Origin: a virus
Virus record (IMG/VR): IMGVR_UViG_3300044960_000113
Coordinates: 96,001 to 160,000 of that record
Strand: one strand, 5' to 3'
DNA length: 64,000 nucleotides
Positions 1-56,814 of the stretch are shown here, in pieces (positions within the stretch are counted from its first letter, which is position 1; each line of letters opens with the position of its first letter). The translations under genes were made by a program, and so were the position numbers. A model generated the notes under the pieces. The model ran no database searches. It was not told the origin of the DNA and saw only the letters and a program-made list of their open reading frames with translations.

Positions 1-906
1 ATCGATTAAACCTTTTTCATAAAGTCTATTGACAATATAATAATGTGTAAATGAAGCAAATCCTTCATTTAAAGTTTTTGTGCTGCCTTGAGGGTAAAAA
101 TATTGTGATATTTTTCTAACAATACGAATTATTTCTCGTTCCCATGGTTTTAAATTTGGTGCATTTTTTTCTATATAATATAGAATATTTTCTTGTGGTT
201 CAATTTCTTTAGGATCAATTTTTGAAGTTTTTGAATCATTTTTTTCAATACCATGAATAGTTTTATTTATTACATCGTCATAATATTGAATTTCTTTATC
301 ATATTTTATTTTTTCTTGCATTAGACGTTCTTCTTCATTTAATCTCTTTTTAGAACGTCTCACGTATGCATCAACACCATGATCACGTAATGAATGACAT
401 GCATCTAATAATTTTTCAACTTCAGAAATTCCATATTTTTCTTCACATGATGCTATATATTTTTTAGCAAATTCCATATAATCTATAATATATTCAGCAT
501 TAGTAAAAGTTTTAAACATATAATTATTTTTAAAAACAAAATTATGTCCAAATGCTGCATGAGCTATAACCAACATTTGCATAGTTGCATCATTTTCTTC
601 CATTAAATAATTAATACATGGGTTAGAATTTATAACCATCTCATATGCAAGCCCCATATTTCCCTTTTTATATTGATTCCAGTTTTTAACAAAATCTTTA
701 CCAAATGACCAATGATTATAATTGACGGGCAAACCTATAGATGAATATGCATCTAGCATCATTTCAGCAGAAACAATTTCTAGTTGATTTGGGTAATATG
801 TCAACTCCATTTCTTTTGTTGCTATTTTTTCGCATTCATCATAAATTTTTTTGATTAATGAAATATTCCAATCTTCACCAGATTTAAATAATAATTTTTT
901 TGGCAT
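1..906 (-). CDS. spoVR: SpoVR/YcgB-family protein (3' end runs off the window)
   Basis: Not in the ORF track. Manual translation from ATG at 906 gives MPKKLLFKSGEDWNISLIKKIYDECEKIATKEMELTYYPNQLEIVSAEMMLDAYSSIGLPVNYNHWSFGKDF, the SpoVR/YcgB N-terminal signature; lies directly downstream of yeaH and prkA. Confidence 0.9.
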   Translation of the reverse strand, partial: MPKKLLFKSGEDWNISLIKKIYDECEKIATKEMELTYYPNQLEIVSAEMMLDAYSSIGLPVNYNHWSFGKDFVKNWNQYKKGNMGLAYEMVINSNPCINYLMEENDATMQMLVIAHAAFGHNFVFKNNYMFKTFTNAEYIIDYMEFAKKYIASCEEKYGISEVEKLLDACHSLRDHGVDAYVRRSKKRLNEEERLMQEKIKYDKEIQYYDDVINKTIHGIEKNDSKTSKIDPKEIEPQENILYYIEKNAPNLKPWEREIIRIVRKISQYFYPQGSTKTLNEGFASFTHYYIVNRLYEKGLID

Positions 907-941
907 TTTTATAAAATTGTATGTAATTTAATTATATATAT

Positions 942-2249
942 TTAATTATTTATTTTTTTTTTAAAGAATTTTCTAAATACTTCATAAATTTGAGATTCAT
1001 CATCAATATATTCTGCATTAAAATTTTTTGTTGTATGTAATAAATTTTTATATGCATCCCAAAGAGGATGATTTCCTGCTATTATAGAAATGTATCTATT
1101 ATTTCTAATTTCTAGATATGAAAAATGTTGTATTTTTGGTAATAATTTATTTTTGATTATATGGATACATTCAGCATTATCTTCATGTATATTGTCTCCG
1201 TCAGATGTTTGACAAATATAAATATTTGTTTCTGCTGGGTTATATCGTTTTGATATAATATCATCTACTAATTTAAGTGCAGATGATACGATAGTTCCTC
1301 CACTTTCACGTGTTGTAAAAAATGTATGTTCATCAACTTCATGTGCAGTATCAGTATGACATATATAAACAATGTCTGGGTTTTCATATTTTCTATGCAC
1401 AAATACATAAAATAGAGTAAAGAATTTTCTAGAAATTGTTTTTTCTCTTTCACCCATAGAACCGGAATTGTCCATGATAAAAAATATTACAGCCTTTGAT
1501 TTTTTCTTTGGTTTATAATCATTAACACGAAAACGAAGATCTATTGTATCTAAGAAAGGGATAGATTTAATCTTCTTCGTATATCCCGTGATTTTCTTTT
1601 CTAATTCTGATATTTTTTTGAGATCATTTTCATCTAAATTATCTTTAGTTTTTATATCATCAATTTCATCTTGTGCTTTTTTAAGCAATTTTTTCCATTT
1701 ACTTTTCAATGCAATTCTTCTTAATTTAGATTGTGTTATTGATCTAATAATAGATAACCTATTAGGTGGACCAACATTAGTAAATCCAGCATGTGTTGGA
1801 ATTATTTCAACTATCTGTGTTTGTTGTTTATCTTCTATATTTGGTAACTCTAAATCTTCAAAAAAATAATTTAAAAATTCATCACGTGAAACATTAACAA
1901 TAAAATCATCTTCACTATTACCCTGTCCAGCAGAAGGACCATTACCTATTCCATTTTCTTTTCTATCTTTTAAAATATCAAATTCATCGCCACGGATATA
2001 TTTATAATTACCACTTAATATAACAGGTCCATGAAAAATTGATTTATCATATATAAATCTTGGTTCTTCTATCGTATTTTGAGATATAATTACATTATTA
2101 TTACTATCTAAATCACCAACTTTTTTGCCAATTATATCAATTGTTTTTTTATTAATAAATGACTTAATTCTTCTTAAAAATCTCTGTTTATTTCCAGAAG
2201 ATCTTTTTTTAGCAACATTTCGTCTATCAATAATTGTAAATGTTGACAT
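942..2249 (-). CDS. yeaH: YeaH/YhbH (DUF444) family vWA-domain protein
   Basis: N-terminal IIDRR..NKQRFLRR, vWA motif FFIMDNSGSM, ESGGTIVSSAL, YICQTSDGDN. Confidence 0.93.
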   Translation of the reverse strand: MSTFTIIDRRNVAKKRSSGNKQRFLRRIKSFINKKTIDIIGKKVGDLDSNNNVIISQNTIEEPRFIYDKSIFHGPVILSGNYKYIRGDEFDILKDRKENGIGNGPSAGQGNSEDDFIVNVSRDEFLNYFFEDLELPNIEDKQQTQIVEIIPTHAGFTNVGPPNRLSIIRSITQSKLRRIALKSKWKKLLKKAQDEIDDIKTKDNLDENDLKKISELEKKITGYTKKIKSIPFLDTIDLRFRVNDYKPKKKSKAVIFFIMDNSGSMGEREKTISRKFFTLFYVFVHRKYENPDIVYICHTDTAHEVDEHTFFTTRESGGTIVSSALKLVDDIISKRYNPAETNIYICQTSDGDNIHEDNAECIHIIKNKLLPKIQHFSYLEIRNNRYISIIAGNHPLWDAYKNLLHTTKNFNAEYIDDESQIYEVFRKFFKKKINN

Positions 2250-2256
2250 TTATTTC

Positions 2257-4221
2257 CTATGAAGTACTCTTTTTAATACGTTGATACCATTCAACAAGTA
2301 ATTTTATTTGTCTTTTTGTATATCCACGTGTCATCATACGTTTAACAAAATCATCATGTTTCTTTTGGTCTTCAGATGAACTTTTTGGACCAAAACTAAT
2401 AACTGGCATAATATCTTCAGTTGCCGAAAACATCTTTTGCTCAATTACAGTTTTTATTTTTTCAAAACTATTCCATCTTGGGAATTCACCTTTATTATTT
2501 GCTTTATGTCTTAACACAAAATTGACAATTTCATGTCTAAAATCTTTTGGATTTGAAATTTGTGCCGGTTTTTCAATTTTGTTTAATTCATCGTCTAATG
2601 CTTTGCGATCATACATTTCATGTGTTTCTGGGTGTCTAAAATCAGTATCTGATATCCATGCATCTGCATACATAACATATTTTTCAAATATGTTTTGACC
2701 ATAATCAGAATATGATTCTAAAAATGCAACACGTAATTCTTTTTCTAAATATTCTACATATTTTGGTATCAATAAACTTTTTATAAAATCTATATAAGTA
2801 TTTTGTATATCTTTTGGCAAATGTTCTTGTTCAATAGAATTTTCTAACACATAAAATAAATGAACAGGGTTTGCTGCAGTTTCTTCTGGATCCATATCAA
2901 ATGTTTTAGATAAAACCTTAAAAGCAAATCTTGTTGACATACCAGTCATACCTTCATTTACACCTACTTTTTCTTTTGCATCATCTTTGTATTCTTGTAA
3001 AGGTTTTGCTTTTGGATCAGTGTCCTTAATATTTTCACCATCATAAACTCTCATTTTTGACCAAATAGAAGAATTTTCTGGTTCAACAAGTCTAGTAAGA
3101 ACAGAAAATCTTGCTAAAATTTGTAATGTATCTGGTGCACATGGTGCTTTTTCTAATGCAGAATTATGAAGTAATTTTTCATAAATTTTTACTTCTTCAG
3201 TAACACGTAAACAATATGGTACTTTAATTATAAAGACTCTATCTAAAAATGCTTCATTTGTTTTATCATTTCTAAATTTTTGCCATTCTGATTCATTTGA
3301 ATGCGCAAAAATGATACCTTGGAAAGGAAGTCCAGAAATTGCCTCTGTTCCATTATAAGAATGAGATTGAGTTGCTTCTAAAAGTGGATTCAACGTTTTA
3401 ATATCAGCTTTAAACATTTCAGCAAAATTGACAACTCCACGATTACCACGACATAAACCACCAGAATAACTATATGCGTATGGATGATTAGATGGATAAT
3501 CTTCTAATTTTCTAATATCAATTTTTCCAACTAATGCTGAAATATCTTGATTATTTGGATCTCCTGGTTCAATTTTAGAAATACAAATTTGATGATCTTT
3601 GCTTGGATAAATTTTTTCTACTGTGAATTTTGATATATCACCACCGAATTCTTTTAACTTTTCATTTACCCATGGAGATGGACGAGTAATAATTACTCTA
3701 GATGGAATATTATATTCATTTTCTAGAAATTTTTTAGCTTCTTGATTATTAAATAAACTTAAAGGATCATCAAACACAGGCGATAGTTCATCTTCTGCAC
3801 GTAAAACATATACTGGTTGTGTTTCCATTAATTCTTCAATTCTATCAACAAGTGATGATTTACCTCCACCAACAGGTCCTAAGAAATAAAGAATTTGTTT
3901 ACTTTCTTCCAATCCTTGAGCATAATGTTTTAAGAACGATACTAAATTTTCTATGGTTTCTTCCATTCCATAAAAGTCTGAAAATGCAGGATAAATACGG
4001 ATTTTACGATTTAAAAAAATTCTTCCTAATCTTGGATCTTCAGATGTATCTATTATTTTTGGTTCGCCTATTGCTTTTAATAAACGTTCTGCTGGAGATG
4101 AATATACAGATGGATCTGATTTACATAAATTTAAATATTCTTCTAATGATAATATATTATTAGAAAACATATTATCAAATCGTTGTTTTGATATTTTTGT
4201 TAATGAATCAAACAAACTCAT
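2257..4221 (-). CDS. prkA: PrkA/YeaG AAA+ ATPase / serine kinase family
   Basis: Walker A LGPVGGGKSS, FYGMEETIE, YSYSGGLCRGNRG, FAEMFKA, HSNESEW, EAFLDR. Confidence 0.95.
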   Translation of the reverse strand: MSLFDSLTKISKQRFDNMFSNNILSLEEYLNLCKSDPSVYSSPAERLLKAIGEPKIIDTSEDPRLGRIFLNRKIRIYPAFSDFYGMEETIENLVSFLKHYAQGLEESKQILYFLGPVGGGKSSLVDRIEELMETQPVYVLRAEDELSPVFDDPLSLFNNQEAKKFLENEYNIPSRVIITRPSPWVNEKLKEFGGDISKFTVEKIYPSKDHQICISKIEPGDPNNQDISALVGKIDIRKLEDYPSNHPYAYSYSGGLCRGNRGVVNFAEMFKADIKTLNPLLEATQSHSYNGTEAISGLPFQGIIFAHSNESEWQKFRNDKTNEAFLDRVFIIKVPYCLRVTEEVKIYEKLLHNSALEKAPCAPDTLQILARFSVLTRLVEPENSSIWSKMRVYDGENIKDTDPKAKPLQEYKDDAKEKVGVNEGMTGMSTRFAFKVLSKTFDMDPEETAANPVHLFYVLENSIEQEHLPKDIQNTYIDFIKSLLIPKYVEYLEKELRVAFLESYSDYGQNIFEKYVMYADAWISDTDFRHPETHEMYDRKALDDELNKIEKPAQISNPKDFRHEIVNFVLRHKANNKGEFPRWNSFEKIKTVIEQKMFSATEDIMPVISFGPKSSSEDQKKHDDFVKRMMTRGYTKRQIKLLVEWYQRIKKSTS

Positions 4222-22056: not shown

Positions 22057-22151
22057 TGGTAGTCCCCCACGGTTACGATCCGTGCCGTTCCAGCCAATCT
22101 AGCCGGTCTCGCGAGTTTATAAGACTCGCCCGCTCACCAGAGCTGAGGACT
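22057..22151 (-). tRNA. tRNA-Ile(TAT) with long variable arm, T-loop ATCGTAA
   Basis: AGTCCTC/GGGGACT acceptor, GCGAGT CTTATAA ACTCGC, ~25-nt variable region, CCA. Confidence 0.75.
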
Positions 22152-29591: not shown

Positions 29592-31310
29592 TTATCCACA
29601 TTTACTAGAACCACATTGCATACATTTATGACATCCTTCTTGATATACAACCTTTTCACTTCCACATTCTGTACATTTTGCACCTTCAACTATTTCACCA
29701 TCTTTAATAAATGATGCTAGAAATTTTTTAATCTGGAAAATAAAACTTCCAACATAAACATCTTTAATGCTATCAAGTGTTGCAACAATATTTTTGATTA
29801 ATACTCCATGTCTAAGATTTAAAGAAATCATTCTAGCAATTTTAGAAGCATTATCATTTGATTTAATTTTTTCTAACACTTTATCTATATGCTCTTGTTT
29901 AATATTTTTTCTTTTTGCTAATTCTGTCAATTTATCAATAGCATCTAATGTTATAACATTTTTTTCATGATGATTTGTATGAACAAATAATGCAAATGGT
30001 CTAGTGCGTGTTTCATTCCAAACAACAGTTAGATACCATTTTCTTCCTTCAGCACGTAAAGTTTTCATTGATGCTTCTGCAGTTTCTGGAAGAATTACAT
30101 CATCTAAAATAATTTCCTCATCATAACCATTTTTATCTGTTTCTTTTGAAGATAGTACAGCTGTCATTGTACCTGTTCTGTATGTTGTTACACCTTTAAC
30201 ATATCCAGATTTATAAACATCTAAATAAACATTTTTAAAATCATCAAATGGATATTCATGTGGAACATTGACAGTTTTTGACATAGCACTGTCAACCCAT
30301 CTTGCAAATCCAACTAAATCATTAACATGATCTTCAACAGTCAATCCATTCAATGCAGTAACAGCCCATGGTGCTTTTGGATTCCATTCATTTTTTTCTT
30401 TTAAATATCTAACACCATAATCAGAACACGTAACCTCTTTAGTCAATCCTCTATTTTTATCGATTTTATAAACTATACCATTATGTTTTCCTTTAAGAAT
30501 TTCTTCATCACCTTCTTTTGTGAATTTAAAAATTTTTGTTTCATGCCACTCACCATCGTACCATTTAGGTGTTTCTTCAATCATATCTTCTGGAATAGAT
30601 GGAACAATAACCGTTCTTATATATTCTGGCATAAATATTGGTTCTAATCCACTAGATACAACATTTGCTAATATAGAAGTATTTCCTGTTGGTTGTATCG
30701 ATAATAATGAACTATTCCTAATTCCAACAGTTTTTAATTTTTCCATATATGATTTTGATAGACCTAATGATTGAATAAATGGATTTTCAGAATGTTTTTG
30801 TGGGTCACATAATTTAAACATTCCTTTTTCTTCTGCTAAATCAATAGATGACATATATGCACTTCTAGCTATGGTAGACATAACCTTTTCACGCAATTCA
30901 TGTGATTTATCAGAACCAAATTTTATTTTCAACATAAATAATGATGATGCCCAACCAAGAATACCAATACCAATGCGACGCTTATTTTTCATTGAATATT
31001 CATATTCAGGAAGTGGTGCATTAGATAAAGTATTAACATTATCTAAGAAACGAACAAGATAACCTGTATATTTTGCTATTTTTTTATAATCAAAATCTGT
31101 ACAATCTTCATTAATAAATTGAGTTAAATTTAATGAAGATAAACAACAAATACCACCTGGAGCCAACATTTGTTCACCACAATTATGAACTAAAATTCCA
31201 TTTGCAAAAAAATTATGATTTTTGGTAGTAGTTAAATCAAAAACATCTTGATTTTCAGTTATTTTTATAGATTTAATTTTTAATTTGCGGAGGTTGTTGT
31301 TTGTTTCCAT
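29592..31310 (-). CDS. nrdJ: Split-intein C part (43 aa) plus C-half of class II (NrdJ-like) ribonucleotide reductase
   Basis: KIKSIK..VFDL..HNFFANGILVHN|CGEQ; CCLSSLNL, RRIGIG, SIQPTGNTS, SSGLEP, SAMSKTVN, KGVTTYR, C-terminal Cys cluster. Confidence 0.92.
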   Translation of the reverse strand: METNNNLRKLKIKSIKITENQDVFDLTTTKNHNFFANGILVHNCGEQMLAPGGICCLSSLNLTQFINEDCTDFDYKKIAKYTGYLVRFLDNVNTLSNAPLPEYEYSMKNKRRIGIGILGWASSLFMLKIKFGSDKSHELREKVMSTIARSAYMSSIDLAEEKGMFKLCDPQKHSENPFIQSLGLSKSYMEKLKTVGIRNSSLLSIQPTGNTSILANVVSSGLEPIFMPEYIRTVIVPSIPEDMIEETPKWYDGEWHETKIFKFTKEGDEEILKGKHNGIVYKIDKNRGLTKEVTCSDYGVRYLKEKNEWNPKAPWAVTALNGLTVEDHVNDLVGFARWVDSAMSKTVNVPHEYPFDDFKNVYLDVYKSGYVKGVTTYRTGTMTAVLSSKETDKNGYDEEIILDDVILPETAEASMKTLRAEGRKWYLTVVWNETRTRPFALFVHTNHHEKNVITLDAIDKLTELAKRKNIKQEHIDKVLEKIKSNDNASKIARMISLNLRHGVLIKNIVATLDSIKDVYVGSFIFQIKKFLASFIKDGEIVEGAKCTECGSEKVVYQEGCHKCMQCGSSKCG

Positions 31311-31425
31311 ATAGCTTTTTCCTTTTTGTAACTTTCACAATAATCATTAATGTTGTCAATTATAATAATTGGTATATCTTGTTCTTTTTTTAACATCTAT
31401 GGAAGTTATAAACCTATGTGACATT

Positions 31426-32763
31426 TTAAATACCTATTAAAATATCGTCTGTTGTTAAGTCAGATGCATTAACATACCCACGATTTTCAGTATAGACTTT
31501 ATGATCTGGTGTTAATTTAATGACTGTAGAATCTTCTAATTCTAATTCGATAACATTAGCATTATTACGTGTTTTGTCGACAAAAGTTATATCTTCAAAT
31601 TCTGTATTTTGTGTGTCAATATTCATTGTTAATACTTTGAAGCTTTCACCAGATTTAAACCTTTTGGCCAACTCAAAAAATGATATTTCACCCTTATCTG
31701 TCGTGACTAAAGTATCACCAGTTAAACATGGATTTGTCGAATAAATTGTTTCAGCATAATTTAATGGATTAAAATAATTTGCACGATCTAAAAATAAAAC
31801 ACCTGGCTCTGCGCGATTATATGTTGATTCCATAATTAAATTCCATAGCCAAGTTGCTGATACTGTTTGATACACTATTGTTGGATACCCAGCTGATTCC
31901 CATTGCTTAATGTCACCTTTCCATTCTTTTTTATATTTTGGATGACTTGTGTCTGGGAAACGTAAATTCCATTTATCAATTTCTTCTTTTTCTTTAATTA
32001 AAATTTGTTTATTTTCATCATCATCTGATAATGAATCAATTTGTTTTTGTAATTCTAATGCTTTTATAACCTTTGACATAAATTCATCTGAACAATTTAC
32101 TGACATATTAAATTTTGTCAATCTTCCTGATGATTGTTTTGCTGTAATAAATTCTATAATATCAGGGTGCCAAACATCTAATACTGCCATCATCGCGCCC
32201 TTTCTAATTTTACCTTTCGCTTTTACATGTGTTGATTTTTTACCTGAACCAGAAGTAATAATATCAGATGATTTATCAAATAATTCCATATATTTTACAG
32301 CACCTGGCGTTTCAACGCCAATCCCATAAATAAAAGCACCACGCGGTCTTATCCAACTAAAATTTTCTCCCCATCCACCCTCACTTTTGAGTGTTTGTGC
32401 TTGATCATTTAATGTTTTAATAATATTACTTAATGAGTCTATATCATTATTTGCTCTAGGTGCAACAAAGCAATTAATAAATGTTGTACCTTTCCATTCT
32501 GTCCCAGCATTTGCATAAATTCTACCACCAGCAGTAACTTTAAATTCACTAAGCATATCATAAAATTTTTCGGTCCACTCGATACGCTTTTCTTCAGTTT
32601 CTTCTGCTGATGCTATTGTTTTTGCGACTCTAAAAAGAGTATCATCTATTGTTTTATCATTATAATCTTTGTATGTTGTTTGCCATATTTCTTCTGAAAA
32701 TTGATCTTGAAATTTTGTTGAATATTTTTTTTGAAGTTTTTGTTTAAGTGTATTGAAATCCAT
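31426..32763 (-). CDS. nrdJ: N-half of class II (NrdJ-like) ribonucleotide reductase plus split-intein N part (100 aa)
   Basis: AGGRI, INCFV, GGWGENFS.IRP, RKGAMM, HPDI, FNMSV, EPGVLF, STNP|CLTGDT, block B KLTPDH. Confidence 0.92.
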   Translation of the reverse strand: MDFNTLKQKLQKKYSTKFQDQFSEEIWQTTYKDYNDKTIDDTLFRVAKTIASAEETEEKRIEWTEKFYDMLSEFKVTAGGRIYANAGTEWKGTTFINCFVAPRANNDIDSLSNIIKTLNDQAQTLKSEGGWGENFSWIRPRGAFIYGIGVETPGAVKYMELFDKSSDIITSGSGKKSTHVKAKGKIRKGAMMAVLDVWHPDIIEFITAKQSSGRLTKFNMSVNCSDEFMSKVIKALELQKQIDSLSDDDENKQILIKEKEEIDKWNLRFPDTSHPKYKKEWKGDIKQWESAGYPTIVYQTVSATWLWNLIMESTYNRAEPGVLFLDRANYFNPLNYAETIYSTNPCLTGDTLVTTDKGEISFFELAKRFKSGESFKVLTMNIDTQNTEFEDITFVDKTRNNANVIELELEDSTVIKLTPDHKVYTENRGYVNASDLTTDDILIGI

Positions 32764-32890
32764 CTTTTCTCCTATTTAATCTTTGTATGTTGTTTGCCAT
32801 ATTTCTTCTGAAAATTGATCTTGAAATTTTGTTGAATATTTTTTTTGAAGTTTTTGTTTAAGTGTATTGAAATCCATCTTTTCTCCTATT
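32663..32890. repeat. Perfect 114-bp tandem duplication of the nrdJ RBS and first 33 codons
   Basis: 32663-32776 is identical to 32777-32890. Confidence 0.95.
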
Positions 32891-32918
32891 ATTCATAATC
32901 ATGTGATTTCACAAAATT

Positions 32919-34160
32919 CTATAAAACCACTGGACACTTCAACGAAGCAGCCAATGTCGTACCGACCACTGGACTTATGACCTCTCTGTGTCTGTTCTCG
33001 ACTGATTCGGCCGAGTTTAATTCTCTTGCACCTCTTTTAATCCAATTGACAAGATCTCTAGAGGCTTCTTGTTCGATGTTCTTAGCAGCATTCAAGTCTC
33101 GATCATGCACTACACCACAGACGGGACATGTCCAACGACGGGCATCAAGCGATTTTTTACCATCATGATGACCACAAGTAGAACAAATTTGACTAGAAGC
33201 AAAGTAGCGATCAACCTTGGCAAATTCCTTGCCATACCAATTTGCTTTGTACTCAATTTTAGATACCAATGAAGACCAACTCGCATCCGCAATGTTCTTG
33301 TTTCGAGTCTTGTTCTTAGACTGCATCATACCTTGGATAGCTAGATCCTCAAGATAGATGTAGTCATAATTCTTGACAAGCCATTTAGAAAACTCATGTT
33401 GTAGGTGTTCTCGCTGATTAGAAATTTTCAAATATATGCGATTGACCTTCAACTGTTGCTGCTTGCGGCGATTGCTACCTTTTTGCTTCCGACTCAAATG
33501 CTGTTGTGCTCTTTTTAGTTTAGATTGGCTTTCTCTAAACCACCTTGGATTTGCTAGTTTGTGACCGTCACTGAGAACAGCCAAATCTTTCAACCCAAGA
33601 TCAATACCTACAGCACGATAGGTATTTGGTAAAGGTTCTGGTTTTGCTTCTTCCACCAGAACGCTTACAAAATACTGGTTTGCTTTGTTTTTCGAAACTG
33701 TTACTGATTTGGGCGCTCCACGGAACTTTCGATCAACAACCATTTTCATTGGTGTCATTTTTGTGAGCTTGATTGTTCCAGCATTTAAATCAAACGCCTT
33801 CATTCCACCCAATGATGCCGCGGGAATTTTGAATGAATCTCGTGATTTACCTTTACGTTTGAACTTCATTCGCCCAAGTTTAACTGCTCGTTTCTTGTTG
33901 AAGAATTGCTTTTTGGTTTCATCAAAGTCCATTCGCTTTTGCTGAAGTGCATAGCTGATGGCTTCGTTCAACCAAGGATATCTGGGATCATCTTTCAAGG
34001 TCTTTTCTGTGACCGTTTGGTTTGGTCCATCTTTAGACCAAGAATTGAAGTTAGCTACCAGTTGATTCCAGACAAAACGAACTGCACCAAAGTTCTGCAA
34101 CAAGAACTGCTCTTGTTCTTTGGTTGGATATAACCGATACTTGTATGCCATAAGAATCAT
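32919..34160 (-). mobile_element. tnpB: TnpB (IS200/IS605 family, no TnpA) RNA-guided nuclease
   Basis: AYKYRLYPT HTH, GIDLG, YLEDL, CSTC/CPVC zinc finger, DRDLNAAKNI; visibly higher GC than flanks. Confidence 0.95.
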
Positions 34161-36174: not shown

Positions 36175-36248
36175 TGGTTGTTCCTGAAGGTAACGCTCCT
36201 TCGTCTCACGATTATCAGTCGTGCGCTCTACTTTTGAGCTAAGGAACA
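36175..36248 (-). tRNA. tRNA-Ile(GAT), T-loop AGCGTTA
   Basis: CACGA CTGATAA TCGTG. Confidence 0.88.
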
Positions 36249-36504: not shown

Positions 36505-36627
36505 TCTATTTTTAATCTTTTGATCTGCATCTCGTGCAGCTTCTCCAGATTTCCGCCTATTTAAATCCATTTTTAATCTGGTGGATTTTGGCTCTCGTTA
36601 CCATTTTTACCAGTATTATAAAACAAC

Positions 36628-36657
36628 TTAGGGTCTAAACTTTCGTTTTGACCCTAA
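36628..36657 (-). terminator. Terminator-like hairpin after leader peptide
   Basis: TTAGGGTC..GACCCTAA followed by GTTGTTTT. Confidence 0.6.
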
Positions 36658-36690
36658 ATATATTTTTTGTGTTTAAGAGAATAATATTAT

Positions 36691-36795
36691 TTAGGGCCAT
36701 TCCCTATTTTGTTTATGATCAATAGTGCGAATAGTGACCTGTGCAGTTTTAATCTGCACTGTCTGTTTTCTATTTGTATTAATCATAAAAGCCAT
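36691..36795 (-). CDS. Putative 34-aa leader peptide MAFMINTNRKQTVQIKTAQVTIRTIDHKQNREWP
   Basis: GGAG RBS, manual translation, followed by hairpin and tRNA array. Confidence 0.55.
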   Translation of the reverse strand: MAFMINTNRKQTVQIKTAQVTIRTIDHKQNREWP

Positions 36796-36996
36796 TTTAT
36801 ATTACTCCATTTAAACATAAATCTATTTATTGATATTTCAAAAATTTTTAATAAAAACCCTAAAATAAGGTTTTTATTAAAAGTGATTATAATATTGATT
36901 TTCCCACAACAAGGTCTTTATCACACCTATCCTTTAGTCATTCATTATCATCACGACCATAAGTCAAACTGCAATTGAGTATGAACTGTATTTTTA

Positions 36997-41644: not shown

Positions 41645-41719
41645 TGGTGCCTCGTGAAGGTTACGCTCCTTCTACCCTTCGCTTGTAAGGCGAATGCTCT
41701 ACTATTGAGCTAACGAGGC
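41645..41719 (-). tRNA. tRNA-Val(TAC), T-loop AGCGTAA
   Basis: TTCGC CTTACAA GCGAA. Confidence 0.88.
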
Positions 41720-41732
41720 ATTTAAAAGAGTA

Positions 41733-41840
41733 TTAATCGACACATGGGTTTAAGGACTTCATAGATATGTCCTCTCAATTTGATTATACAAGTTGTCCAT
41801 ACTTGTAAATTGAGATTACGTTAACGCTTTGGTCGATCAA
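41733..41840 (-). ncRNA. Candidate multi-branched ncRNA in tRNA array
   Basis: TTGATCGAC/GTCGATTAA closing stem; CTCAATTT-ACAAGT/ACTTGT-AAATTGAG arm; AGGAC/GTCCT arm. Confidence 0.5.
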
Positions 41841-41874
41841 GCAGGCGGACACACCAATTTGTTCCCTAATACTC

Positions 41875-41953
41875 TGGTGCAAGGTCCAGGAATCGAACCT
41901 GGTTTTACTGCTCTTCAGGCAGTCGCTGAAATCACCAGACTAGCTCACCTTGC
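41875..41953 (-). tRNA. tRNA-Phe(GAA)
   Basis: ACTGC CTGAAGA GCAGT. Confidence 0.9.
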
Positions 41954-42074
41954 ATATTTCAACTACCTCGTATCAATTGCACAGCACTATTATTACATTA
42001 TTATTGTCTACCAGTGGCCACAGATTAGTGTAATCATTCCCTAGTTCGTCAACTAGGCGAGATTATTTAATAAT

Positions 42075-42154
42075 TGGTGGACCTCCAGGGATTTGAACCC
42101 TGCTGAATATCCGCATTGCAAGTGCGGCGAACACCCCAAGCATTCCCGAAGCCC
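42075..42154 (-). tRNA. tRNA-Ala(TGC), second copy
   Basis: G3-U70, CCGCA CTTGCAA TGCGG. Confidence 0.88.
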
Positions 42155-42164
42155 ATTATGTTTT

Positions 42165-42238
42165 TGGCGGGCTGCCAAGGAATCGAACCCTGATCTGATG
42201 TTTTGGAGACATCCATTCTACCACTGAACTAGCAACCC
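42165..42238 (-). tRNA. tRNA-Trp(CCA)
   Basis: GATGT CTCCAAA ACATC, G73. Confidence 0.93.
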
Positions 42239-42245
42239 GTTTTTA

Positions 42246-42355
42246 TGTGTTGACTGTCTCAACACTGACGAATTTTACTCCCTTTCGGTTTCATCCTCGC
42301 CGCCGCCCGTTTAGTTCTTTTTTAACGTGCTGAACAACACCCTCGTTGCGTATAT
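42246..42355 (-). ncRNA. Candidate structured ncRNA
   Basis: GGCGAG/TTCGTC stem enclosing GATGAA-CC-GAAA-GG-GAGTA; terminal GTGTTG/CAACAC hairpin. Confidence 0.45.
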
Positions 42356-42372
42356 ATGCACGTATTACTTAT

Positions 42373-42447
42373 TGGTCGTCACTATAGGTACTGCCCCTAT
42401 CTAGTCTTCGTTATGAGCGAAGTGCATAACTTCTCTGCCAAGTGACG
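42373..42447 (-). tRNA. tRNA-Met(CAT), T-loop GGCAGTA
   Basis: CTTCG CTCATAA CGAAG, CGTCACT/AGTGACG. Confidence 0.85.
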
Positions 42448-42564
42448 TTAATCTATAACTACTCTTTTAGTTCTTTTAAAAGAACCTTTTCCTTTTTTAG
42501 ATTTAAAAACACGCATTTTATATTTTGGTGTTCTTAAATCTTTTGATACTATACTTTTCTTCAT
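42448..42564 (-). CDS. arfA: ArfA-like alternative ribosome-rescue factor (38 aa)
   Basis: Not in ORF track. AAGGAG RBS; MKKSIVSKDLRTPKYKMRVFKSKKGKGSFKRTKRVVID carries the ArfA L..P....RV.K.KKGKGS..R motif. Confidence 0.8.
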   Translation of the reverse strand: MKKSIVSKDLRTPKYKMRVFKSKKGKGSFKRTKRVVID

Positions 42565-42585
42565 TTTTAATATCTCCTTAAAATC

Positions 42586-42616
42586 AAACCGGGCTCCTTT
42601 TTATGGAGCCCGGTTT
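42586..42616 (-). terminator. Strong hairpin between leader peptide and arfA
   Basis: AAACCGGGCTCC/GGAGCCCGGTTT 12-bp stem. Confidence 0.75.
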
Positions 42617-42643
42617 TTAAATTTCATGAGATATTTATCTCTT

Positions 42644-42739
42644 TTAACCGAGCTCCTTTAGTCGCATAGGCGCATATGAACTAAAGCTCACTAGAAGCAT
42701 TGTACATAATGATGGTAACCAATAAGTTGCTTGTTTCAT
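42644..42739 (-). CDS. Putative 31-aa leader peptide MKQATYWLPSLCTMLLVSFSSYAPMRLKELG
   Basis: AAGGA RBS, manual translation, upstream tandem promoters, downstream hairpin. Confidence 0.55.
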   Translation of the reverse strand: MKQATYWLPSLCTMLLVSFSSYAPMRLKELG

Positions 42740-42779
42740 TTACTTTAAAATTCCTTTTAATTAAATTGTATCTATGTTA

Positions 42780-42907
42780 TATTTATAATAATATCACGTT
42801 TTTTCAAAAAAGTAAACTATTTTTTCCTAAATTTTTTAAAAAATTAAGCTGTATTTACATCATATTTATAATAATATCATGTTTTTCAAAAAAGTAAACT
42901 ATTTTTT
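42780..42907 (-). repeat. ~46-bp direct repeat carrying tandem promoters
   Basis: 42780-42825 and 42863-42907: TTTACT-17-TATTAT overlapping TATAAATA. Confidence 0.75.
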
Positions 42908-42952
42908 AAATCGCCTATTCAAAAATAATTAATAATTTCTCTTTAATTAATG

Positions 42953-43592
42953 TTATTTCCAAATAAATTCTCCACCAATATTAATAAATGAATGATCTGA
43001 TTCTGATTTAAATTTGATATTTTTACAATAAAAACTACCACCTACTTCTCTTGGTGCACCTTGTAATGATGTTAATTGATTATCTGAACAATCAAAATTA
43101 CCACCAACTTTTTTTGGTCCACCTTGTAATAATTTTATAACCACCAATTTCTCTTGGTCCACCTTGTAATGATTTTAATTGATTATTATGACAATCAAAA
43201 TAACCACCAATTTCTCTTGGTCCACCTTGTAATGATTTTAATTGATTATTATGACAATCAAAACTACCACCAACTTCTCTTGGTCCACCTTGTAATGATG
43301 TTAATTTATTACCATAACAATCAAAACTACCACCTACTTCTCTTGGAGCACCTTTTAATGATGTTAATTTATTACGTTGACAATAAAAATTACCATCTAC
43401 TTCACCAAATTGGACTGGTATATGTGTTAAATTTCTATTAGAAATATTAACATCTCCATTAACATCAACTATACCATTATCATGAATTATATAATTTTTA
43501 ATGTTCATCTTTTTTAACCAATCCTTTATTTCTTGTTTATTGGTTAATACTTTATGTTCTTCTTCTTTTAAAAATAGTTCTTGTAATTTCAT
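42953..43592 (-). pseudogene. 22-aa leucine-rich-repeat protein with MKLQEL leader, frameshifted within a repeat
   Basis: LTSLQGGPREVGGSFDCxxNQ units (66 bp) continue across ORFs 43098-43592 and 42953-43162; truncated unit near 43130. Confidence 0.8.
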
Positions 43593-45084: not shown

Positions 45085-45163
45085 TGGTCCGGAAGATAGG
45101 ATTTGAACCTACATGATTCCATTACTCTTTCTACAGTTTCGAAGACTGAGGAGATACTTCCGG
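45085..45163 (-). tRNA. D-armless tRNA-Arg(TCG) with expanded variable region
   Basis: CCGGAAG/CTTCCGG; 7-nt connector TATCTCC; CAGT CTTCGAA ACTG; 20-nt variable region; T-arm; CCA. Confidence 0.75.
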
Positions 45164-45774: not shown

Positions 45775-45801
45775 TTAGGGCTTCTTTTAAAAAAGCCCTA
45801 A
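45775..45801 (-). terminator. Terminator-like hairpin after leader peptide
   Basis: TTAGGGCTT..GAAGCCCTAA then ATTGTTTT. Confidence 0.65.
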
Positions 45802-45834
45802 GTTTAGATAAAAAATCTTAACTTAGAGCTCACA

Positions 45835-45924
45835 TTAAATATCCTCCCCGCGTTCATCGCGATCAACACGACCTGTTCCGGTAACCCGAATAGTCATGAT
45901 TGAGATTGAAGTAATGTTAAACAT
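45835..45924 (-). CDS. Putative 29-aa leader peptide MFNITSISIMTIRVTGTGRVDRDERGEDI
   Basis: AGGAG RBS, manual translation, promoter upstream, hairpin and tRNA array downstream. Confidence 0.55.
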   Translation of the reverse strand: MFNITSISIMTIRVTGTGRVDRDERGEDI

Positions 45925-45961
45925 TTATTGCTTGCTCCTATTAAAAATTTACTATATTGGT

Positions 45962-45990
45962 ATTATATATAGATTTTTCTAAAAAGTAAA
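45962..45990 (-). promoter_or_regulatory. Sigma70-like early promoter
   Basis: TTTACT-17 nt-TATAAT. Confidence 0.7.
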
Positions 45991-52362: not shown

Positions 52363-52437
52363 TGGTGGGCCCTCTCGGATTTGAACCGACATATTTCGAA
52401 TTATGAGTTCGGTATTTTATCATTAAATTGCAAACCC
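52363..52437 (-). tRNA. tRNA(CAT) (Ile2 or Met) whose 5' half is supplied by the end of the endonuclease ORF
   Basis: GGGTTTG..ATTT/AAAT D-arm, CGAA CTCATAA TTCG, T-arm, AGGGCCC A CCA. Confidence 0.65.
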
Positions 52438-56372: not shown

Positions 56373-56481
56373 CGCCTATGGTATATGGGTTAATATTGAC
56401 ATTATAACACAAAAATAAAGAAAAGTATATAAAATATTTATTTAATATTATTAATTTTTTTAATAAAGATAGTTAAAATAA

Positions 56482-56760
56482 AATGCAAGCTGATTTGATG
56501 ACAAGGACAGCTTGCGAAACCTCGTGGTGATTACGCTGCTAGGCGCATCTCTCCAAAATATTCATCATTTGCTGCATTTATTTTAGTTTTGTCTTCTCAA
56601 TAACGGCTTTAGACATTGCCGAGCGCCTTTTATTAGTACTAATCGTTACCACGTCGAAACCATATACCACCCCATATTAAAATTTTAATCTATTGGTGGA
56701 GTGGGCGGGAATCGAACCCGCGTCCGCAATAACTTTCCCTTATAAAAGGTTTACGCTGTT
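56482..56760 (-). ncRNA. ssrA: Two-piece (circularly permuted) tmRNA
   Basis: Acceptor piece ..GACGCGGGTTCGATTCCCGCCCACTCCACCA (ends 56694) precedes coding piece GGGGTGG..TTCGAC (starts 56673); G3-U70; tag ANDEYFGEMRLAA* at 56531-56572. Outer ends approximate. Confidence 0.93.
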
Positions 56761-56814
56761 TTACTACATTTACACAAACGCCAATTTGTGTTCTTTATTT
56801 GTTATATTTATATT

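Follow-up and report, generated by a model that had tools for sequence, protein, structure and literature searches.

Why would a phage carry the gene for a protein of 38 amino acids at the head of a block of transfer RNA (tRNA) genes, with the stop codon of that gene in direct contact with the first nucleotide of a tRNA? The question is raised by a short region (positions 42448-42739) of the 64,000-nucleotide stretch of viral DNA analyzed here, hereafter the window, which comprises bases 96001-160000 of the 184-kb IMG/VR virus record IMGVR_UViG_3300044960_000113 (CheckV completeness, 52%). A preliminary description of this region had interpreted the small open reading frame (ORF) as an unannotated ribosome-rescue factor of the ArfA type, pre-shortened and under translation-sensing control, and as judged from sequence comparison this reading of the locus is largely right. 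The match of the ORF to ArfA, the antiterminator pairing found upstream of it and the composition of its leader peptide are each far beyond chance. We consider it reasonably likely that the locus encodes a minimal phage ArfA which is gated by an attenuator and co-expressed with tRNAs, and whose message is cut by RNase P at the stop codon. What is new is the regulation: arfA would be co-induced with the tRNAs upon ribosome stalling, its Shine-Dalgarno (SD) sequence would be occluded, and a tRNA would define the end of its mRNA. All features described below lie on the minus strand (-) of the window unless otherwise stated.

The 38-residue protein and the ArfA family

The gene, here termed arfA (42448-42564), is preceded by the SD sequence AAGGAG (42574-42579), 9 nt before its ATG, and ends in a UAA codon at 42450-42448. 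Its product carries, as had been described, the core RV-x-K-x-KKGKGS-x-x-R, here in the form RV-x-K-x-KKGKGS-[YF]-x-R (residues 17-31), and the proposed ArfA-like identity held when the protein was compared with the hidden Markov model of the family, residues 13-34 aligning to positions 21-42 of PF03889 with 26.8 bits (cut-off 25.5; E 3.5e-6). A degenerate DNA pattern for the ArfA core, searched in viral contigs, retrieved more than 118 contigs; the matches fall nearly all inside ORFs of 29-70 codons, which also share a conserved N-terminal half that is not part of the pattern. All 37 distinct phage relatives examined match PF03889 (best E 6.5e-12), and a profile of these 37, compared with 177,635 PDB sequences, recovered ArfA chains only (E 2e-11), aligning without gaps to residues 12-50 of Escherichia coli ArfA. 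Among 1.84 billion cluster representatives, 41 relatives were found at E<1e-3, and the family comprises at least 7074 clusters, many of them named 'alternative ribosome-rescue factor' by JGI. The closest relative, from a phage lineage designated L120, encodes a protein 78% identical to that of the window, and codons 14-39 of the two genes differ by 10 synonymous and 3 non-synonymous changes, indicating that the ORF is a translated gene under purifying selection. By profile and alignment, then, the ORF belongs to the ArfA family.

In the same alignment, the phage protein is the equivalent of residues 11-48 of E. coli ArfA (YhdL, PF03889; ribosome-bound structures 5U4I, 5MDV, 5MGP, 5H5U and 7OJ0), and it ends at a stop codon of its own, which bears out the notion of a pre-shortened ArfA. 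The two proteins share the RV strand that recruits RF2 (E. coli Q27-E30), the KKGKGS motif, the aromatic residue and the arginine that follow it, and the basic tail that enters the mRNA channel (PMC8012679). In the N-terminal segment, which activates RF2 and has a small residue at Ala18 in E. coli, the hydrophobic positions equivalent to I16, L20, P23 and F25 are retained, but lysine stands in place of Ala18 and the first ten residues are missing. An E. coli ArfA cut to 40 amino acids is inactive (PMC8012679); the phage protein has eight residues beyond the equivalent of residue 40, three of which are arginine or lysine. The differences lie in size, the E. coli protein having 72 amino acids (about 55 in its active form) and the phage protein 38, and in context, the phage gene being phage-encoded and located in a tRNA operon behind an attenuator, with its stop codon abutting a tRNA. 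Nor does the gene follow the non-stop-mRNA pattern of E. coli arfA: an in-frame UAA is present and neither an RNase III-type nor a terminator-like hairpin was found after the motif, suggesting that the phage ArfA is not obligatorily made from non-stop mRNA. A 14-bp hairpin within the ORF (42541-42499), considered as an analogue of the RNase III site of the E. coli hairpin, was dropped because it precedes the KKGKGS motif. The arfA coding RNA (42448-42564) is unusually structured (z -3.9; 0 of 200 shuffles), with hairpins of 14-16 bp over codons 8-22 and of 7 bp over codons 27-32, the latter still paired in L120 despite synonymous changes.

Short ArfA homologues of other phages, such as gp30 of pelagiphage HTVC027P and the JGI-named proteins, belong to the same family, span 29-70 amino acids and show the same consensus on both sides of KKGKGS. 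Since gp30 is an expressed ArfA-domain gene, transcribed during infection (PMC12753301), and annotated phage members exist, phage ArfA as such is not new. One further 38-residue homologue (contig L127, 71-5082) occurs near a CCA-adding enzyme gene and directly upstream of ORFs resembling 2H phosphoesterases and Macro domains, a neighbourhood of RNA repair, not of a tRNA array. BrfA of Bacillus subtilis, also made from non-stop mRNA, and ArfT of Francisella are likewise small basic peptides, which sense the empty mRNA channel and recruit a release factor (PMC6881298, PMC8012679). No sequence relationship was detected between these two and the phage protein, which matches ArfA only.

The attenuator, the tRNA unit and related phage loci

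Upstream of arfA, the two elements noted in the preliminary description are both present: a leader ORF of 31 codons plus stop (42739-42644), kept in frame in L120, and a 12-bp hairpin (42616-42586). The latter has the properties of an intrinsic terminator, with a GC-rich stem formed by perfectly paired arms (42616-42605 and 42597-42586), a loop of 7 nt, a stability of -22.5 kcal/mol and a U-rich tail, and it lies 21 nt before the arfA ATG. The segment that covers the end of the leader ORF (42645-42657) is a near copy of the 3' arm of the terminator and reaches to the leader stop codon. With its final 11 nt, up to the first base of this codon, the leader can pair over 11 bp with the 5' arm of the terminator; the energy of this pairing (-20.2 kcal/mol) was not equalled in any of 2000 dinucleotide shuffles of the 90 nt upstream. 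The antiterminator hairpin so formed has a stability (-19.8 kcal/mol) near that of the terminator (-22.5 kcal/mol).

In the minimum-free-energy fold, this antiterminator strand is held by a partner located upstream within the leader ORF, forming an anti-antiterminator helix (42650-42691) that is not clearly conserved in L120, and the terminator helix is extended by a segment (42636-42619) that pairs with the arfA SD (0 of 2000 shuffles). The SD is unpaired when the antiterminator fold is forced. On its sequence and predicted folds, the combination of leader ORF, 12-bp hairpin and a complementary segment over the leader stop codon is a trp-type leader-peptide attenuator. It recurs in other phages, and the translation-sensing control that had been proposed is upheld. 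A match of the region to the Rfam L20-leader family (24.3 bits, with a gathering score of 58.7) was rejected, as it rests mainly on the terminator hairpin.

Two promoter-like sites precede the leader, both inside an 83-nt tandem duplication. The distal one (42871-42898), in the first copy of the repeat, consists of TTTACT, 16 nt and a TG-extended TATTAT, and is a putative promoter by this likeness; the proximal one (42788-42816) has TTTACT, 17 nt and a TG-extended TATTAT followed by TATAAATA, and its -35 and -10 blocks are conserved in L120. A scan of this strand between 42788 and 42565 found no promoter, and as none fits between the hairpin and arfA, the gene would be transcribed only by read-through. 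Just upstream of the promoter-like sites, a 164-residue ORF (43098-43592 (-)) consists of tandem repeats of about 21 residues with weak matches to leucine-rich repeats.

Downstream, the unit runs through a tRNA(CAU) cloverleaf (42373-42447), a conserved structured spacer RNA of 134 nt (42239-42372) and a series of further genes (42238-39139) encoding tRNAs for Trp, Ala, Phe, Val, Tyr, Val and Tyr, an ORF of 225 residues, and tRNAs for Pro, Ser (three), Thr, Cys and Leu (two), and is closed by a strong terminator (39175-39139 (-)). When the amino acid set of the unit was derived automatically from the ARAGORN calls, leader residues 4-25 were all found to fall within the 11 amino acids of the downstream tRNAs, with 11 out of 11 members of the set present. 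A run of 22 in-set residues never occurred in 100,000 random peptides of phage composition (p<1e-5). The leader thus spells out the tRNA content of its operon, and it appears to sense tRNA supply, not the capacity of transfer-messenger RNA (tmRNA) as in the case of E. coli arfA. To our knowledge, the loop formed by non-stop mRNA and tmRNA is the only control known for ArfA.

The trpL and hisL leaders and the multivalent thrL and ilvL leaders are transcription attenuators of amino acid operons. The phage locus resembles them in its short leader, its intrinsic terminator, an antiterminator strand placed where a ribosome on the leader stop codon would mask it, and regulatory codons that match the product of the operon. 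It is unlike them in that the regulated genes are tRNAs and a ribosome-rescue factor instead of biosynthetic enzymes, in that the leader lists 11 amino acids once to a few times each with no run of one or two of them, and in that the terminator helix also hides the SD of the first cistron. A literature search for leader-peptide attenuators of tRNA operons found no paper.

The contigs carrying the closest of the 41 relatives yielded four further lineages (L120, L121/L122, L131 and L132), and in all four the module of leader, terminator, arfA and tRNA genes recurs. L120 has the same promoter blocks, a homologous leader, an antiterminator (17 of 2000 shuffles), the terminator and arfA, whose UAA directly abuts a tRNA(CAU); the three indels between its leader and that of the window are each 3 nt long, and the peptide is conserved. 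The L121/L122 lineage has a TTTACT promoter, an unrelated leader of 38 codons, an antiterminator near the leader stop codon (7 of 2000 shuffles), a terminator and arfA, followed after 6 nt by tRNAs for Tyr, Leu, Pro and Asn, and the arfA SD of L121 is occluded (15 of 2000 shuffles). The same layout is found in L131, where 8 nt separate arfA from a tRNA-Pro and where the array serves seven amino acids, to which 21 of the 25 residues after the start Met of the leader belong (p<1e-5), with an in-set run of 12 and 7 out of 7 members present. In L132, the leader and terminator are followed by tRNAs for Asn, His and Gln and only then by arfA, 5 nt past which a canonical tRNA-Met(CAU) and ten more tRNAs are encoded; its leader shows an in-set run of 34, with 13 out of 13 members present. 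The antiterminator layout of L131 and L132 is present by eye. Among the other viral loci fetched, 14 have any tRNA gene and none of these 14 has a tRNA abutting arfA, while the arfA homologues P0003 and P0004 are located in plain protein operons. The link between attenuator, arfA and tRNAs is therefore confined to the phage of the window and the L120, L121/L122, L131 and L132 lineages.

Two other units of the window, at 45775-45990 (-) and 36626-36830 (-), also consist of a leader ORF and a terminator, which span 45924-45775 and 36795-36626, respectively. The first heads tRNAs for Gly, Glu, Gly and Asp (and possibly Arg) and the second tRNAs for Asn, Lys, Ile, Gln and His. In both, the stop codon of the leader coincides with an antiterminator strand or is followed immediately by one (0 of 2000 and 1 of 2000 shuffles, respectively). 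The three tRNA arrays of the window would cover all 20 amino acids without overlap if the odd Arg tRNAs are real.

The spacer RNA that follows the tRNA(CAU) has counterparts in L120 (457-590) and L121 (2036-2170), with invariant blocks that include a GGGCGG stretch. It is predicted to form three helices, and in 12 of the 29 pairs predicted both sides have changed with pairing preserved; one hairpin at its 3' side shows two compensatory pairs between the window and L120; no Rfam family matched it (42239-42372). The 225-residue ORF of the unit has no relative in viral contigs.

The proposed mechanism and its alternatives

According to the mechanism proposed here, transcription would start at one or two of the TTTACT/TATTAT promoters and proceed through the leader-peptide attenuator into arfA, the first cistron of a unit that runs on into about 16 phage tRNA genes. 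A ribosome that runs smoothly to the end of the leader would sit, at its stop codon, on the antiterminator strand, so that the terminator forms and the ribosome-binding site of arfA is buried, while a ribosome stalled within the leader would allow the antiterminator to pair with the 5' arm of the terminator, leading to read-through into arfA and the tRNAs with an open SD. Maturation of the tRNA(CAU) by RNase P would then cut the arfA message at its stop codon. On a ribosome that has stalled at the 3' end of an mRNA, the basic KKGKGS tail of the protein would probe the vacant mRNA channel and the RV strand would recruit host RF2, freeing the nascent chain. From the features described above we infer promoter use, leader translation, stall-driven read-through, RNase P cleavage and RF2-dependent rescue. 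Several observations weigh against one or another part of this scheme, among them that no RNA run containing the phage sequence was listed in the sequencing-run search; the others are given below together with the alternatives.

The description of the stop codon as directly adjacent to nucleotide 1 of a tRNA was accurate, the UAA occupying 42450-42448 and the cloverleaf starting at 42447. The 75-nt RNA that begins there folds, at minimum free energy, into a full cloverleaf (-19.4 kcal/mol, z -2.2) with a 7-bp acceptor stem, a 5-bp anticodon stem, a 7-nt loop carrying CAU, a 5-bp T stem, a discriminator A and an encoded CCA. ARAGORN in mitochondrial mode (-mt) calls Met(CAU) at exactly 42373-42447. 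In bacterial mode the program makes no such call, lowered thresholds included, Rfam RF00005 gave no match to the cloverleaf at E<=10 over 41800-43000, and the elbow is not canonical, the D loop having no GG and the T loop not being T-psi-C. The cloverleaf could therefore be a tRNA-shaped processing or decoy element that does not decode, attracting RNase P or soaking up an anticodon nuclease. Its identity of 75 out of 75 nt with L120, where the flanks are 60-73% identical and the neighbouring tRNA-Trp 60%, would suit such a role, and so would the occurrence of a second CAU tRNA (Rfam match at 52366-52437). Neither the viral nor the metagenome contig collection searched contains an exact copy of a 31-nt piece taken from the tRNA(CAU).

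On the other hand, the anticodon loop is canonical (U33, CAU, A37), and the 7-bp acceptor stem, discriminator A and encoded CCA are those of the other tRNAs of the phage, all but two of which encode CCA. Four ARAGORN-called tRNAs of this phage have T loops as odd as that of the tRNA(CAU), two Met codons lie inside the sensor stretch of the leader, and L132 has a canonical tRNA-Met(CAU) in the same place. A processing or decoy role without decoding is unlikely, though it retains some weight. Several tRNAs of the phage (Tyr, 41550-41633; Val, 41645-41719; Ile, 36175-36248; Ile-UAU, 22057-22151; all (-)) carry A-[GU]-C-G-U-[UA]-A in the T loop where T-psi-C-R-A would be canonical, and several also have unusual lengths of 84-95 nt. 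Two matches to the tRNA model carry no ARAGORN call, one at 52366-52437 (-) with 38 bits and one at 45088-45163 (-) with 33 bits; the anticodon loop of the former reads CAU by eye, so that the phage has at least two CAU tRNAs.

Since RNase P has to cleave at 42448|42447 for the tRNA(CAU) to mature, UAA would be the last codon of the arfA message, whose 3' end is thus presumably set by RNase P at the stop codon. A precedent exists in the E. coli secG-leuU transcript, where mRNA and tRNA are likewise joined and a single RNase P cut parts them (PMC2241853). There, 14 nt are kept after the stop codon, whereas the spacer of the phage arfA is of 0 nt and its processing is only predicted; the cut secG mRNA is degraded exonucleolytically from 3' to 5' in less than 30 s, and most of its 3' ends lie inside the coding region (PMC2241853). 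The limit that ArfA tolerates is three nucleotides and that of tmRNA roughly nine (PMC8012679). A complex in which UAA fills the A site and no mRNA follows would stand exactly at the limit of ArfA and well within that of tmRNA, and the loss of even one base from the message end would turn it into a non-stop message.

It is conceivable, though we regard it as doubtful, that the zero-nucleotide junction is itself a regulatory device, one that has arrived at the same logic as E. coli arfA through a different nuclease. The arfA message released by RNase P would end in its stop codon with no protective 3' structure, and exonucleases would strip the stop codon as in secG-leuU, making most arfA messages non-stop. 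ArfA would then be tagged and destroyed as long as the host tmRNA and the permuted tmRNA of the phage have capacity, and would accumulate only once trans-translation is saturated. If so, ArfA output would be under two keys, tRNA shortage opening transcription and tmRNA overload letting the protein survive, and the unit would be a phage-borne circuit for sensing and repair of attacks on translation, such as those of anticodon nucleases or mRNA interferases. The distances from the arfA stop codon to the next tRNA are 0, 0, 6, 8 and 5 nt in the five loci; the exact zero gap is common only to the window and its closest relative L120, and the three other lineages have 5-8 nt.

Rather than rescuing ribosomes through RF2, the protein could be an ArfA-derived peptide that plugs the mRNA channel, for host shut-off, hibernation or protection against defence nucleases, or that has another partner. 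The position of E. coli Ala18 is occupied by lysine in the phage protein, and the A18T change abolishes the activity of E. coli ArfA by blocking RF2 activation (PMC8012679). Residues 1-10 of the E. coli protein have no counterpart. Close homologues are common in phages of hosts devoid of ArfA, such as the SAR11 pelagiphage HTVC027P (PMC12753301). ArfA has been reported only from beta- and gamma-proteobacteria (PMC8012679), and the permuted tmRNA of the phage hints at a host group other than these. Unfavorable to the proposed rescue through RF2 is also that no gene for SmpB, RF2 or any release factor was found on the 184-kb contig. Against such a plug stand the conservation, across the phage family, of the RF2-recruiting RV strand and of the hydrophobic spacing that precedes it, and the co-regulation with tRNAs and co-occurrence with tmRNA, which suit a factor that supports translation. 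We hold such a plug to be quite unlikely.

The attenuator could also be questioned, in that the hairpin might simply terminate a small transcript coming from upstream, or terminate in both directions, the leader ORF might be no sensor, and arfA expressed from constitutive leaky read-through. A consensus scan scores the 42616-42586 hairpin as a terminator on the + strand too. At equilibrium the terminator fold of the full-length RNA is better than the antiterminator fold by 16 kcal/mol, so that the switch must be kinetic and co-transcriptional, like classical attenuators. Of the tandem promoters in the preliminary description, two promoter-like sites within the duplication stand, but as a class such matches are no commoner than in shuffled sequence. 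As regards the proposed scheme itself, the occlusion of the SD is not significant in L120 or L131, and the composition of the leaders of L120, L121 and the two further window units does not match the automatically derived tRNA sets significantly; for the latter two, the match reaches significance only when the uncalled Arg tRNAs are counted as well. Yet complementarity over the leader stop codon occurs in five loci and in the three units of the window, the leader is conserved in frame, leaders match the downstream tRNA set in three complete loci (p<1e-5), and the nearby genes are all on the minus strand. Leaky read-through past a leader that senses nothing is in our judgment very improbable.

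The possibility that AT-rich DNA produced this lysine-rich frame by chance, and that its Pfam match is spurious, is close to refuted: its 38 low-complexity residues, the narrow Pfam margin (26.8 against 25.5 bits, and 24.9 bits, below the cut-off, in a six-frame search) and the weak matches of the family model in 10 of 14 control genomes at E<=10 are outweighed by a strong SD at optimal spacing, orthologues, changed mostly at synonymous sites, in at least four other phage loci, conservation of the N-terminal half outside the search pattern, and PDB matches to ArfA only.

Source phage and significance

The source virus is a huge phage. The G+C content of the window is about 27%, nearly all of its genes are on the minus strand, and it has YeaG/PrkA-like and SpoVR-like genes in common with phages of 340-640 kb. 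The kinase gene, of the YeaG/PrkA serine type (654 residues), adjoins the SpoVR-like ORF (window 1-4221 (-)), and its product is about 60% identical to the homologues in these phages; the genes of this stress-kinase cassette are thus phage-borne. ARAGORN counts 32 tRNAs in the phage, which also encodes a CCA-adding enzyme. A permuted, two-piece tmRNA (RF04321, 92.7 bits) was identified at 56440-56786 (-); the tag that it is predicted to encode ends in LAA. The neighbouring ORFs 31426-32763 and 29592-31310 (-) match consecutive portions of the ribonucleotide reductase large subunit and adjoin a transposase-like ORF (32919-34160 (-)), so that the region 29592-34160 may contain a split or interrupted reductase gene.

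Near-identical DNA was found in six DNA runs, four of them with at least half of the sampled words, all labelled as hot-spring or microbial-mat metagenomes. The INPHARED phage collection gave no match to 4 kb of DNA or to the 38-residue protein, a result whose meaning is limited by the low-complexity filter and by the exclusion of near-identical records.

At this locus, a minimal ArfA would be wired to the same translation-sensing switch as the block of phage tRNAs. The locus provides material for what is putatively the smallest functional ArfA, and possibly for a 38-mer tool peptide. It also bears on the counter-defence of phages against systems that target tRNA or mRNA, and on the question of whether cleavage by RNase P at a stop codon can yield a functional mRNA 3' end. 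L120, L121, L131 and L132 offer independent loci for the idea of leader peptides that gate phage tRNA operons, itself without a paper in the literature search described above. The arrangement suggests that ribosome stalling is, to huge phages, a single signal, which they answer with both tRNA supply and ribosome rescue.

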